A stretch of 20,320 nt of DNA from a virus (Duplodnaviria; Heunggongvirae; Uroviricota; Caudoviricetes): positions 1 to 20,320 of the IMG/VR virus record IMGVR_UViG_2565956608_000010; one strand, given 5' to 3'. The translations under genes and the position numbers were made by a program. The notes beneath the pieces are model-generated. The model had not been told where the DNA came from. It was given only the letters and a program-made list of their open reading frames with translations, and made no database searches. The first letter of the stretch is position 1. The number at the start of each line of letters is the position of its first letter. Below are positions 4,588 through 13,816 of the stretch, piece after piece.

Positions 4588-5199
4588 TTATCTTTTTTTA
4601 ACACGCTTTCGAGTCCTTTTAGATTTTTCCTTAAGATATTCCGCAAGTTTATCCTCATCATTATTAAATTGAGATAAAAGCTCATGCTCGCAATTAAGTG
4701 CTTTACTCGCATAAGTTCCATATAGTTTCTTTCTTGCTAGTGCTGCTATGAATGCTGCATCTTCTTTGCTATCGAAATACCCTAACGATATTGTCTTATT
4801 TTTATAACCAACATAAGACTTCCACCTGCCAGTTGTCTTATCCCAAGACACTCCAATCGCACCGGATGTGTTTAACCTATTCCCTACAATGTTTCTTGCA
4901 TTCTGCTCCTCTGTTGCCAGTCTTAGATTTGAAATCCTATTGTCAAGTCTGTTCCCATTTACATGATCAATAAACTTAGGAGGCCATTTTTTGTATACAT
5001 AGAACCAAGCAAGTCTATGCGCATAATACAAAACATTATTTATGCTAATGCATATATAACCACCACTAACACCTCCAGCAATACTACCTTTTACTCTTAC
5101 TACTGAATTTGTTTTTAGCCATTTAAATATTCCTGTTTCTGAGTCATATGATAATGTTGACAGAAGCTCATCGTGATCAATTAGTTTTTTTATTCGCAT
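4588..5199 (-). CDS. HNH homing-type endonuclease with AP2-like domain, second copy (203 aa), AT-rich
   Basis: AHRLAWFYVYKKWPPKFIDHVNGNRLDNRISNLRLATEEQN (HNH) and GVSWDKTTGRWKSYV...LGYFDSKEDAAFIAALA (AP2-like); same architecture as 767..1279; codon usage looks AT-rich compared with the neighbours. Confidence 0.8.
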   Translation of the reverse strand: MRIKKLIDHDELLSTLSYDSETGIFKWLKTNSVVRVKGSIAGGVSGGYICISINNVLYYAHRLAWFYVYKKWPPKFIDHVNGNRLDNRISNLRLATEEQNARNIVGNRLNTSGAIGVSWDKTTGRWKSYVGYKNKTISLGYFDSKEDAAFIAALARKKLYGTYASKALNCEHELLSQFNNDEDKLAEYLKEKSKRTRKRVKKR

Positions 5200-9948: not shown

Positions 9949-10116
9949 TTGTGTGAAACAGGCTGCAGAAATGCAGTCTTTTTCGGTTATCGATGTCACC
10001 ACTGGTAAATCGTTTACCATAAGTCTTGATCTATTTGGTTTACCGTGTCACTCTTGGTGCACCACTTTACCAATGGTAAAACATTAACCAGCAATGACAT
10101 CGTTAACCAGGAGTTT

Positions 10117-11139
10117 ATGATGAAGAAATATGCTATATGGAACAACAAGGGAGGAACAGGGAAAACAAGCCTGTCATTTCAAGCTATTTGCAGATATGCA
10201 GAAATTCACCCGCTTGAGCGCGTGTTGGTTATTGATGTGTGCCCACAGGCAAACTTGTCAGAGCTTTTTCTTGGGGGGTTAATAGGTAATGGAAGCATAA
10301 ACTTATTGACTAGGCATGATATAAATAATAGATGTACTTTGGGTGGCTACTTCCAAATGCGCCTCCCGACGCCTTATCAAAAACCCATTGTTGATGCCCA
10401 CGATTATTTGACACACCCAAAAAAATTCAACGAACATATTCCAGCCAATATATCGTTGGTATGCGGTGACCCGCTTCTTGAGCTTCAAGCAAACGCCATC
10501 AACACTCTTGCTAATCAGCAGATTCCAGGAACAAATGCATGGGTAAGCATCATTGATTGGATTAATGATCTTATTAAAGATCTAAATGATGAGTACGATG
10601 TTTTATTTATTGACTGTAATCCTAGTTTTTCAATTTATACTCAAATAGCATTAGCTGCTGTAGAAAAGCTCATCTTGCCAGTTATGGCTGATGATTCCTC
10701 TCGTCGCGCCATTCAAAATGCTTTCTCTTTGATTTATGGATTAAAGTTGCCATCTGATATTTATGCATCCTACGCATTTGCAAACAAACTTACCGCGGTG
10801 AGCAGACCACTACCCAAAGTTCATATGATCGCAAAAAACCGTCTTACACAGTATATGGGGCCTGCATCAGCCTATGCCGCAGTTCTAAAATCAATCGATA
10901 ATGATATTCAGCAACTATTACTAAGTAACCCTGAAATTTTCGACTTCGAAAATATTGAAGAGGGAGTGGTAAATATTAAAGATTTTCAGACAACTGGTGT
11001 TGTTGCCTTTGCTAAAGGATGTCCATTTTCGATCCTACCAACAGGTAGTGTACGAGTTATGAACAGAAGGGTAAAAGTTAATGCCCCATATAAACAATCT
11101 TGCTTAGAAGCCATTGATAGGATGGTGGTTAAACTATAA
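10117..11139 (+). CDS. ParA/MinD-like P-loop ATPase (340 aa from MMKKYAIWNNKGGTGKTS) in the rexAB position; function unknown, candidate exclusion/defence gene
   Basis: Deviant Walker A KGGTGKTS near the N-terminus, ParA-type motif VLVIDVCPQANLS and later VLFIDCNPS; RBS AGGAG 4 nt upstream of ATGATG at 10117; AT-rich by eye; flanked by the cI terminus and a terminator before OL. Confidence 0.7.
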   Translation: MMKKYAIWNNKGGTGKTSLSFQAICRYAEIHPLERVLVIDVCPQANLSELFLGGLIGNGSINLLTRHDINNRCTLGGYFQMRLPTPYQKPIVDAHDYLTHPKKFNEHIPANISLVCGDPLLELQANAINTLANQQIPGTNAWVSIIDWINDLIKDLNDEYDVLFIDCNPSFSIYTQIALAAVEKLILPVMADDSSRRAIQNAFSLIYGLKLPSDIYASYAFANKLTAVSRPLPKVHMIAKNRLTQYMGPASAYAAVLKSIDNDIQQLLLSNPEIFDFENIEEGVVNIKDFQTTGVVAFAKGCPFSILPTGSVRVMNRRVKVNAPYKQSCLEAIDRMVVKL

Positions 11140-11147
11140 ATCAACCA

Positions 11148-11174
11148 ACCCGGCCCCAGTGCCGGGTTTTCTTT
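11148..11174 (+). terminator. Rho-independent terminator after the ParA-like gene
   Basis: ACCCGGC-CCCAGT-GCCGGGT stem-loop followed by TTTCTTTG. Confidence 0.6.
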
Positions 11175-11331
11175 GCCTCACGATCCCCTTCACCCAATAA
11201 CACATAACCAATTGTATTTATTTGAAAATTAATAGATACAACTCACTAAACATCGCAATTCAGATCTCTCGATCACCTCCCAAGCCACACACCCCTGCAA
11301 AAAAATAAATCTATATAAAAAACATACAGAT

Positions 11332-11394
11332 AACCATCTGCGGTGATAAATTATCTCTGGCGGTGTTGACATAAATACCACTGGCGGTGATACT
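11332..11394 (+). promoter_or_regulatory. Left operator OL3-OL2-OL1 with promoter pL
   Basis: OL3 AACCATCTGCGGTGATA 11332..11348; OL2 TATCTCTGGCGGTGTTG 11352..11368; OL1 TACCACTGGCGGTGATA 11376..11392; pL -35 TTGACA 11366..11371, 17-bp spacer, -10 GATACT 11389..11394; matches lambda OL/pL as recalled. Confidence 0.9.
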
Positions 11395-11462
11395 AAACAC
11401 ATCAGCAGGACGCACTACTCACCAGGGCGGTGAATATACAACGATTCGAATATGAATCTACG

Positions 11463-11477
11463 GCGCTGACAAAGCGC
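11463..11477 (+). promoter_or_regulatory. nutL boxB-like hairpin GCGCU-GACAA-AGCGC in the N leader
   Basis: 5-bp stem with GACAA pentaloop about 65 nt downstream of pL; same loop as the nutR hairpin; no clear boxA identified upstream. Confidence 0.5.
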
Positions 11478-11642
11478 AATAACCAAAGTGAACTTTGGGG
11501 TGTGGTGAAGGGTTCATGGACGGGAATATGTCGCACGTAAAGCGGCGAGGCCTGCAGGACTATTGCCGAATTGAAGTAGGCCGAAACAGGTCGAAATGGG
11601 TCTCCCACCTACCACACCACCAAAGTTCATCAGGAGGTCTAT

Positions 11643-12026
11643 ATGACACGCAGAACTCAGTTCAAAGGCAATTCACGTTCTCGTCGTCGTGAGCGTTTAA
11701 AGGCAAAGGCATTAGCTAACGGCGTGCTGGCCCGCGAAGAAGCAATAAGTTCAGAAGTATTACACCGCCCTACTCTAAGCAGAGCGCAGATTCAGGCTAA
11801 AGGTACTCACGAAACGCCTGAGCGCATAGAAGACGCTAAGCCAATTAAGTTCATGGCACAGGACGTGATCTGGCAACAGAAAGAATACAGACGCAATCTG
11901 GAGCGAGCGGCCATTGTGTACGCGAATGAGTTTGGACATAAGCAACCAGAAACTGGTGTATGTCTTCCAAACGTAGCCATTTACGCGGCAGGCTACCGGA
12001 AATCCAAACAACTGACGGCGAGGTGA
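11643..12026 (+). CDS. N: N-like transcription antiterminator (127 aa, arginine-rich N-terminal motif)
   Basis: First gene of the pL operon after a ~240-nt structured leader; Arg-rich motif TRRTQFKGNSRSRRRERLKAKALA; RBS AGGAGG before the ATG; not lambda N by sequence but the same position and features. Confidence 0.75.
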   Translation: MTRRTQFKGNSRSRRRERLKAKALANGVLAREEAISSEVLHRPTLSRAQIQAKGTHETPERIEDAKPIKFMAQDVIWQQKEYRRNLERAAIVYANEFGHKQPETGVCLPNVAIYAAGYRKSKQLTAR

Positions 12027-12047
12027 CGATCCCCCGCCGTCGAGGAA

Positions 12048-12587
12048 CTAAATTAGCTCATCAGCTTTACCAGCAAAGCGCATATAACACTCATGGAACC
12101 AGACGTCAGGTATAACAAATTTCTCTCTACCTGACGCGCTGTAAGTCACACCTGAGCGATGGAGAAGGCCTTTTCTCATAAGAGATAAAGCGACCGGATC
12201 GCCGTGCTTAAGTACGATTTTGTTATTTGCCATAACAGCAAATGCTAAAACCTCTTTTTCCTGAATACTCAGAGAATTGAACAGGCGCTCAGTCTCCACA
12301 ATTACTTTAGCCTCATCTCTCTTACTGAGATATTTTTTATATCTGTCTGAAGATGCCAGAAATATAAACTCCATCACCCTGTTCAGAACATAACTGATAC
12401 ACAAAAGCATTGCGTAATACATCCAGTGATCTGGAAGTATTTCTGGGTTCCTTATATCTACCCACTCTTTAATTGATGCGGGGGTGATTATTATCAAGGC
12501 AATTAAAATAATAAGCATATGAATTAACTGTTGTAGCGTAAGACCACGCAGGAAGAAACGTAATAGTTCCTGCCACCAGTTACTCAT
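12048..12587 (-). CDS. SieB-like superinfection exclusion membrane protein (179 aa)
   Basis: Convergent, tail-to-tail with N as I recall lambda sieB being; hydrophobic helix LIHMLIILIALIIITPASI; assignment by position and topology, not by recognised sequence identity. Confidence 0.45.
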   Translation of the reverse strand: MSNWWQELLRFFLRGLTLQQLIHMLIILIALIIITPASIKEWVDIRNPEILPDHWMYYAMLLCISYVLNRVMEFIFLASSDRYKKYLSKRDEAKVIVETERLFNSLSIQEKEVLAFAVMANNKIVLKHGDPVALSLMRKGLLHRSGVTYSASGREKFVIPDVWFHECYMRFAGKADELI

Positions 12588-12797
12588 CGGTGAATCTCCA
12601 TCATTCTCTCTGTAGGGGGTGAATAGAGTTTATCCGATTTCTCGCTGTAGGGGTACACGAGAACCACCGAGCCTGATGTGGTTAAAAGACAGGCACAATC
12701 TTTACTACCGCAAGCCACGCAGTGAAATGGGTGTGACTTGTGTTGGTCGCCAGAAAATGAAATTAGGCAGCAAACCACTTATTTGAGAGGAATTAAT

Positions 12798-13421
12798 ATG
12801 TCATCAATCCGCTTAACTACGAGAATGAAAGAGGAAATCGCTCGTAACGCTTTAATTAAGTCCGGGGTGTTCACTGAACTTGAAGAAGTAACAAAGTTAA
12901 AGAACCAGCTTGCACTTGACGCCAGAGTTATTGCGTTTGGCGGGAAAAAGAAAACCGAAGAAGTGGACCAGCTGGCATCAAAGTTAATGGCTGCAAGTGA
13001 GGAACTTCAAAAGCTGGGATGTTCATTTTACTCATGCGATGTCAGTTCATGTTCGATTTATCTGACTGTATCTGGAAGAAGGGTTGGCTGGCATTCATAC
13101 GGAAAAGACGGCAACGGTGAAGATATATTGCTCCCTACCCCCGACAAAGATAAATGCATGTTTGACGCAGAACACAAAATAACAAAAAGGTTTGATGAAA
13201 TCTGCGCATTGCAACAAAAACTTGAAGCCAGGAAAAAGGATATAGAATCAAACGTATGGGCTGCTTTGAACTCAGTCACAACAGTTAAGCGACTTATTGA
13301 AGTTTGGCCTGAAAGCAAAGAGTTGCTACCAAAAGAAGCAGATAAAGCAAGTGCAGCACTTCCTGCTTTACGGGTAGAAGATTTGAATAAGATGATTGGA
13401 CTTCCTTCCGAGGCCGCATAA
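12798..13421 (+). CDS. hypothetical protein (207 aa from MSSIRLTTRMKEEIA), coiled-coil-rich; occupies the ral/ea10 region of the pL operon
   Basis: Internal Met of the track ORF preceded by RBS GAGAGGA; followed by a terminator hairpin; no family recognised. Confidence 0.6.
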   Translation: MSSIRLTTRMKEEIARNALIKSGVFTELEEVTKLKNQLALDARVIAFGGKKKTEEVDQLASKLMAASEELQKLGCSFYSCDVSSCSIYLTVSGRRVGWHSYGKDGNGEDILLPTPDKDKCMFDAEHKITKRFDEICALQQKLEARKKDIESNVWAALNSVTTVKRLIEVWPESKELLPKEADKASAALPALRVEDLNKMIGLPSEAA

Positions 13422-13436
13422 TCGGCCTTTATTTTT
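13412..13436 (+). terminator. Rho-independent terminator-like hairpin at the end of the 207-aa gene
   Basis: GGCCG-CATAAT-CGGCC followed by TTTATTTTTGG; the stop codon lies in the loop. Confidence 0.5.
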
Positions 13437-13645
13437 GGCATAAACAACAGAATAAACACTGCACTGTGTATTCATTCCAACGAGTGAATACACGGAGCAA
13501 TGTCGCTCGTAACTAAACAGGAGCCGACTTGTTCTGATTATTGGAAATCTTCTTTGCCCTCCAATGTGATGGCTTTTTTATATGCATACCAATAACGCTT
13601 AACTAGAGGCGTTTTCGTTATGCAATCAAACAGAAGGAGCATCCT

Positions 13646-13816
13646 ATGCAACAGTTCGCTATTGCAGGGGCGGCATCGGTTCGCCCTTTCAACCCGATTT
13701 TATCGGTACAGCATTCACGAAAAAATATTTTAACCGGAGCAGACTTTAAACAACCAAGAATGAAAAGTTTGCTCGAAAAGCTTTGGGATATTTTGAAACA
13801 ACAAGGCCGCCCATGA
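13646..13816 (+). CDS. cIII: CIII-like protein (56 aa)
   Basis: Manual translation MQQFAIAGAASVRPFNPILSVQHSRKNILTGADFKQPRMKSLLEKLWDILKQQGRP; resembles lambda CIII (MQYAIAG..., ...LIDILNQPG); RBS AGGAG before the ATG; below the length cut-off of the ORF track. Confidence 0.7.
   Translation: MQQFAIAGAASVRPFNPILSVQHSRKNILTGADFKQPRMKSLLEKLWDILKQQGRP

Follow-up and report, generated by a model that had tools for sequence, protein, structure and literature searches.

A P22-type sieB gene and an Nmad5-family gene occupying the ral slot between N and cIII of a lambdoid prophage

When P22-like phages superinfect, the SieB protein of phage P22 halts macromolecular synthesis halfway through their lytic cycle (PMC10883804). 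Which of the sieB peptides is translated is switched by a cis-antisense RNA called sas, and one of these peptides, Esc, bypasses the exclusion (PMC12197685). In both lambda and P22, sieB is followed by ral. The lambda sieB gene (34482-35036) abuts and converges on N (35037-35438), and in P22 sieB likewise lies just past N, on the opposite strand. Here we describe the corresponding interval, from N to cIII, in a stretch of 20,320 nucleotides of viral DNA (Caudoviricetes; IMG/VR record IMGVR_UViG_2565956608_000010, positions 1 to 20,320), which is called the window below and to which coordinates refer unless another genome is named. The window has the same layout of N and sieB, followed on the other strand by a gene of the Nmad5 family in the place where lambda has ral. 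An initial annotation, made from the letters alone, had described these two genes as a SieB-like membrane protein and a protein of no recognisable family, and had proposed that they form a defence or counter-defence cassette. Our reading, which we hold to be probable rather than secure, is that the interval contains two unrelated accessory modules, a P22-type sieB and an early, protein-binding Nmad5, joined by lambdoid mosaic recombination, and not a two-gene system.

The 179 amino acid protein encoded at 12048-12587 on the minus strand is, judged by its sequence, a true SieB (superinfection exclusion protein B). It matches Pfam PF14163 with an E-value of 3.6e-20 (72.5 bits, where the curated cutoff is 26 bits) and phrog_1301 with 4.9e-94, and it is 49% identical across 99% of its length to P22 SieB, which has been studied genetically. 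The gene converges on the N antiterminator gene (127 amino acids, 11643-12026, plus strand; Pfam N_peptide E 2.1e-15, phrog_271 E 3e-39) exactly as in lambda, and the interval is closed on the other side by cIII (56 amino acids, 13646-13816, plus strand; phrog_550 E 1e-22). The initial annotation had placed the genes between N and cIII, had seen the convergence with N and had called SieB from position and topology, all of which is borne out. The membrane segments that it assumed are visible as two hydrophobic stretches, at about residues 16-39 (maximum 2.65 at 21-39) and 57-78 (1.72 at 59-78), in a 19-residue Kyte-Doolittle plot, which measures hydropathy only. Just past the sieB stop, and overlapping the 3' end of N, the terminator scan found a GC-rich hairpin of 10 bp (12014-12041, minus strand) that is probably the sieB terminator. 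It folds with -21.5 kcal/mol (z -3.4), none of 200 shuffled sequences was equally stable, and its T-run is weak.

The identity to P22 SieB is unevenly distributed. Residues 1-70 are 68% identical, whereas the C-terminal part of about 110 residues (71-179) is merely 37% identical, and the window protein is 13 residues shorter at the C terminus. This suggests, as far as sequence can, that the diverged C-terminal domain confers a different specificity of exclusion and of self-protection by Esc, and the allele could be used for mapping SieB/Esc specificity. No SieB allele with more than 60% identity to the window protein was found among phage records. Among 5,426 complete E. coli genomes, with presence defined as a coverage of at least 80%, the window sieB allele is found in 70, where it is named 'super-infection exclusion protein B'.

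Like its P22 counterpart, the gene may encode a second, shorter product. The P22 record annotates esc as sieB read from codon 25, and Met24 of the window protein aligns there, which gives a putative in-frame internal reading frame at 12048-12518 (minus strand). This methionine is invariant in all four SieB proteins compared (window, P22, Salmonella phage 118970_sal4 and lambda). The promoter of sieB can also be placed. At 12627-12657 on the minus strand lies a 31-mer, TGTACCCCTACAGCGAGAAATCGGATAAACT, that matches without a difference the promoter (PsieB) which the P22 record places upstream of sieB, with a predicted transcript start at about 12620. A simple sigma-70 scan of the region between sieB and Nmad5 returned no promoter on either strand, PsieB included, and PsieB was recognised solely through its identity to the annotated P22 promoter. 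It sits in a linker block (12610-12718, from alignment) that is conserved in P22 and, with 95.4% identity, in lambda, where it occupies 34373-34480 immediately upstream of sieB; this block forms the left boundary of the Nmad5 module. On the minus strand between 12605 and 12660, a direct repeat of the form CCCCTACAG(C/A)GAG (CCCCTACAGCGAG ... CCCCCTACAGAGAG) flanks the -10 region of PsieB and the transcript start. The repeat is conserved in P22 and lambda and may serve to regulate sieB or a sas-like antisense RNA.

By analogy with P22, sieB would be an abortive-infection exclusion gene, transcribed in the lysogen from PsieB and against the pL direction. The membrane-anchored SieB would halt macromolecular synthesis in the middle of the lytic cycle of superinfecting relatives, while the N-terminally truncated Esc would protect the phage itself, with an antisense RNA switching translation from SieB to Esc.

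The second gene (12798-13421, plus strand) does have a recognisable family, contrary to what had been noted at first. Its product of 207 amino acids is, on sequence grounds, a member of the Nmad5 family: the match to PF18757 is full length (residues 4-203 span positions 1-206 of the 206-position profile; E 1.1e-68, 231.9 bits with a cutoff of 27 bits), phrog_1965 is matched with 3e-81, and identical and near-identical copies carry the RefSeq label 'Nmad5 family putative nucleotide modification protein'. E. coli SCU-104 carries a copy that is a 100% match at the DNA level. The start codon is the ATG at 12798, as 25 of 27 aligned homologues begin at the methionine of MSSIRL, and a Shine-Dalgarno sequence, GAGAGG (12785-12790, plus strand), can be read 7 nt before it. 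A longer reading of 227 amino acids from a TTG at 12738, offered by mechanical calling of open reading frames, was dropped because the homologues begin at the ATG. There are 71 Nmad5 homologues in Enterobacterales; those that are 43-93% identical come from Escherichia, Cronobacter, Klebsiella, Raoultella, Enterobacter, Lelliottia, Pantoea, Erwinia, Providencia and Serratia. When 1.84 billion representatives were searched with the profile (E<=1e-3), the family came to 2,652 clusters at 50% identity, with a length of about 200 amino acids in nearly all of the best 150 of these 2,652 cluster representatives, and like most members the window protein stands alone. In many Stx2a-converting phages the frame is matched as two separate pieces, residues 34-207 and 1-37 (examples are LC616075 at 11131-11652 and LC616031 at about 12830-12940), which suggests that Nmad5 is interrupted in that lineage, perhaps by an insertion. 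A literature search on HK542, mEp235, HK244, PhiR12 and PF18757 found nothing relevant.

The two genes adjoin, are divergently transcribed and lie 210 bp apart, and a prophage of E. coli NRG 857C carries the same sieB-Nmad5 pair with 96% identity. From such an arrangement one could take them for a single divergent defence or counter-defence cassette, in which the 207 amino acid protein would be a partner, antidote or regulator of SieB. The distribution of the genes already contradicts this. In the same set of E. coli genomes the Nmad5 allele is present in 209 and the sieB allele in 70, but a probe for the junction between them (12250-13150) is matched in a single genome, that of NRG 857C. In HK542 and PhiR12_1, Nmad5 comes directly after N, with no sieB, and it is also found without sieB in Kapi1 and in Klebsiella, Serratia and Providencia prophages. 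Conversely, P22, lambda and sal4 have sieB but no Nmad5; in sal4 the order is N, then sieB, then an unrelated ORF of 121 amino acids. The intergenic region itself is the linker common to lambda and P22, both of which lack Nmad5, and the known antidote of SieB is Esc, its own truncated form. The two genes are independently assorting lambdoid phage genes, and a cassette is highly improbable. Of the pairing proposed earlier, adjacency and divergent orientation stand, whereas travelling together does not (HK542, PhiR12, Kapi1, sal4 and the lone junction).

What the Nmad5 module has displaced can be told from its flanks. On the right, a conserved block at 13424-13584 corresponds, with an identity of 96.3%, to the lambda segment that separates ral from ea10 (33920-34082), and on the left is the PsieB linker. 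The module is flanked by lambda blocks that bracket orf28 and ral, and Nmad5 is therefore a positional replacement of ral. The same slot, between the PsieB linker and the terminator block upstream of cIII, holds different genes in different phages: orf28 and ral in lambda; ral, orf78, orf87 and gene 17 in P22, where the record annotates gene 17 as permitting growth on a Fels-2 lysogen; ORF15 in sal4; and Nmad5 in the window, HK542, PhiR12 and Kapi1. The initial annotation had expected exclusion or anti-restriction genes at this position, and in the sense that the module replaces exactly lambda orf28 and ral the expectation was sound. Ral and Nmad5 genes are both read from pL and end at the same shared terminator. 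The proteins differ in size (66 and 207 amino acids, a threefold difference) and have no sequence similarity, which makes Nmad5 a positional analogue only. When the window and eight other Nmad5-bearing loci were searched by tblastn, no homologue of ral, P22 gene 17 or ea10 came up.

The right-hand junction can be located closely. After Nmad5 there is an intrinsic terminator (13410-13438, plus strand, predicted -11 kcal/mol), made up of a hairpin at 13410-13429 followed by TTTATTTTT; together with the Shine-Dalgarno sequence, this confirms the ribosome binding site and terminator hairpin that had been ascribed to the gene. Alignment with sal4, HK542 and the lambda sequence downstream of ral puts the recombination junction inside the hairpin. 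The descending stem and the T-run belong to the shared flank, and the ascending stem is supplied by each insert, whether ral, ORF15 or Nmad5. The conserved block beyond it includes a second, degenerate hairpin with a T-run at about 13556-13579. This reads GCCCTCCAATGTGAGGGC in lambda, sal4 and HK542 and GTGATGGC in the window, and since the G-to-T change disrupts the stem, this second terminator may be weaker in the window.

The transcription signals upstream fit expression of Nmad5 as an early gene. The promoter scan places the early-left promoter, TTGACA-17-GATACT, at 11366-11394 on the plus strand; TATCTCTGGCGGTGTTGACATAAATACCACTGGCGGTGATACT is read directly at this site, which we take to be a lambda-type OL/pL sequence. 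Between pL and N, a hairpin, GCGCTGACAAAGCGC (11463-11477, plus strand), can be read from the sequence that resembles P22 boxB and presumably corresponds to the boxB of nutL. Promoter and hairpin together make the plus strand the pL direction. Between N and Nmad5 the promoter scan found no plus-strand promoter-like site; pL and the nutL-like hairpin lie upstream. Since Nmad5 appears to have no promoter of its own and would be read from pL after N-mediated antitermination, it is expected to be expressed early during lytic growth and to stay off in the lysogen. The two genes of the interval are expected to be on in opposite states, because sieB has a prophage promoter and Nmad5, without one of its own, lies in the repressor-controlled pL operon. 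A similar placement recurs elsewhere: in prophages examined from E. coli, Klebsiella, Providencia and Serratia, Nmad5 comes first or second among the genes called past the repressor in the early-left operon, and in those of the latter three genera it comes first on the early-left side. In a Providencia prophage (L016, 6001-12621) it opens an early-left operon whose further genes encode DUF2800, an Enc34-type single-stranded DNA (ssDNA)-binding protein, a DNA polymerase of family A and a TIR-domain (CAP12-PCTIR) protein, a replication module that is unusual for a lambdoid-style prophage.

The AlphaFold (AF2) model of Nmad5 (pLDDT 83.7, pTM 0.69) has long helices at residues 8-72 and 127-158, a beta-hairpin at 86-100, short C-terminal helices, and a tail that is highly conserved and modelled with low confidence. 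As predicted, this is a helical bundle without an enzyme-like fold, and a Foldseek search against viral models (BFVD) returned nothing but other uncharacterised Nmad5 proteins. The conserved tail, KRLIEVWPE...LPAL..DLN..IGLP, is predicted to be disordered. Four residues (L166, W170, E172 and N197) do not vary among 49 diverse family members, conservation of P171 and G201 is 90% or higher, and the C-terminal motif of the family, SVTT.KRLIEVWPE...LPA...DLN..IGLP, is also found in the window protein. An acidic DNA mimic with anti-restriction activity, of the Ocr or ArdA type, was considered and rejected, as the window protein has a pI of 6.76 and a net charge of -0.3 and the family median pI is 7.07.

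The only experimental results on the family come from one of its branches. In a Dhillonvirus, the single change K296E in nmad5 leads to escape from the Tmn defence, and the gene resisted cloning, apparently through toxicity (PMC11846954). CDS0006 of Dhillonvirus SM_S22 is a true Nmad5 (E 1.2e-55). It differs from the window protein in bearing an N-terminal extension of 80 residues, and the alignment of both the Dhillonvirus and the Pseudomonas phage M6 homologues with the window protein is confined to the C-terminal 87 to 90 residues or so. Within this part, K296 aligns with R165, inside KRLIEVWPE, the most conserved motif of the family; the Tmn escape is the only known mutation in the Nmad5 family that gives a phenotype, and it hits this motif. 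Nmad5 was not found in the first 14 kb of Dhillonvirus HK578. Both genes of the interval belong to families that are already known, named and labelled in RefSeq, and the locus is in itself ordinary; its wider interest is limited to the ral-slot replacement and to this correspondence of R165 with K296.

Our best guess, made by analogy, is that Nmad5 is a non-enzymatic early modulator that binds a host or defence protein. It would act like the small proteins of the pL operon (Ral, Gam, Abc2, Kil and cIII), modulating its target for counter-defence or host takeover, and would not modify DNA chemically. This interpretation is suggested by the precise replacement of ral, and further by the early expression from pL, by a helical fold predicted to be non-enzymatic, by the conserved tail with its predicted disorder and by the toxicity. 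The toxicity in Dhillonvirus and the Tmn escape by K296E, given the alignment of K296 with R165, also lend support to an activity directed at the host. What makes Nmad5 a lead that can be pursued is that a large phage family, of about 2,650 clusters, has been precisely swapped for the anti-restriction gene ral in lambdoid phages, where lambda-type genetics could settle its role.

Several observations weigh against this interpretation of the interval. What points to a counter-defence role of Nmad5 is its position and analogy only. The lambda and P22 Ral proteins have no match in the window by tblastn (E<=1e-3), and lambdoid slots also house functionally unrelated morons; the sal4 slot, for instance, holds a hydrophobic ORF of 121 amino acids. 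NCBIfam and PADLOC scans gave no match for SieB or Nmad5, and with PADLOC-DB v2 at E<=0.01 no defence-system match was found for these two or for a ParA-like protein encoded upstream of pL. The link to Tmn is indirect, because deletion of nmad5 left the sensitivity of the Dhillonvirus to Tmn unchanged (PMC11846954). On the side of sieB, there is no obvious Shine-Dalgarno sequence upstream of Met24 for Esc, the promoter scan identified no sas promoter in the window, and an Rfam scan of the whole window had no match, hence none to a known small RNA such as a sas model. Finally, Nmad5 is found elsewhere within thymidine-hypermodification cassettes (M6 and SN1) or beside ThyX and replication genes, and these neighbours favour a role in DNA metabolism.

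Such a role could take two forms. In the first, Nmad5 would be an accessory of DNA base modification, working with an enzyme of the host or of the phage outside the window and shielding phage DNA from restriction. The family name itself derives from gene neighbourhoods such as that of M6, an association that is one of context and is no criterion for membership in the Pfam family. In M6 the homologue, ORF056, lies between hypermodification genes and a thymidylate-synthase-like gene, and the genome note of SN1 counts its Nmad5 (SN1_019) in the thymidine-modification cassette (PMC9476957). In Salmonella phage SP-058, Nmad5 follows ThyX, and HK542 encodes two glycosyltransferases elsewhere in its genome. 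However, the M6 protein aligns with the window protein only over the C-terminal 87 residues or so, and the window, with its 20 kb, contains no hydroxymethylase, nucleotide kinase, aGPT-Pplase, radical-SAM or PLP enzyme. The complete genome of HK542 has no annotation of any such enzyme either, and none adjoins Nmad5 in the Klebsiella, Serratia and Providencia prophages examined. The predicted helical bundle lacks an enzyme-like fold, and the invariant residues (L, W, E and N) make no obvious catalytic set. We regard base modification as unlikely.

The second form would make Nmad5 an accessory of the recombination and replication module, for example a loader or regulator acting on DNA ends or ssDNA. 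In the window Nmad5 lies upstream of Erf, SSB, exonuclease and Abc2; in the Providencia prophage it precedes DUF2800, the Enc34 ssDNA-binding protein and PolA; and in SP-058 it precedes exonuclease, primase, Sak4 and SSB. Yet two terminator-like sites, cIII and another small gene part Nmad5 from erf, and in the Klebsiella prophages kil and small ORFs come after Nmad5 and no recombinase was called. In phage ZRG1 it is found between terminase and portal, and in Dhillonvirus beside scaffolding genes. The boundaries of the module fit the ral slot and not the recombination module, and we consider this form quite unlikely.

The protein-binding interpretation could also be carried further than our best guess does. 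The stand-alone Nmad5 proteins of lambdoid early-left operons might form a new, widespread class of counter-defence proteins that are not enzymes and stand in for Ral in function. Members of such a class might bind and re-program the DNA-modification and restriction complex of the host, or another defence complex, and the KR-L..WPE surface with R165 would be both the functional interface and the feature sensed by KAP-NTPase defences such as Tmn. If true, this would also explain why Nmad5 is kept beside base-modification enzymes in hypermodifying phages. As a whole we think this extension rather unlikely.

The window as a whole is, from Pfam and phrog profile matches, a lambdoid prophage's early region. 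Its minus-strand genes are Q, ninI, ninG, ninB, two HNH genes, a primase/helicase gene, an O-like replication gene and cII. Those of the plus strand are a repressor of 237 amino acids, a ParA-like ATPase, N, the Nmad5-family gene, cIII, Erf, SSB, exonuclease, Abc2, an Ant-like gene and integrase, and sieB is the minus-strand gene set between N and the Nmad5-family gene. The two HNH endonuclease genes, at 767-1279 and 4588-5199 (both minus strand), share phrog_99 with E-values of about 1e-72 each; in the nin and replication region, one of them is next to Q, and the other lies between ninB and the primase/helicase gene.

Another gene of the window with a variable slot of its own is that for the ParA/MinD-like ATPase (364 amino acids, 10045-11139, plus strand; Pfam AAA_31 E 1e-16, phrog_164). 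It lies between the lambda-type repressor and OL/pL, in what we take to be the position of rexA-rexB in lambda, and is accompanied by a terminator at 11147-11168. The gene is in no complete E. coli genome, where only its cI and pL flanks match. Salmonella phage S.Inf 5-2 has a copy at 94%, and hicAB or higB fill the slot in other phages. It is possible that this is a defence or moron gene expressed in the lysogen.

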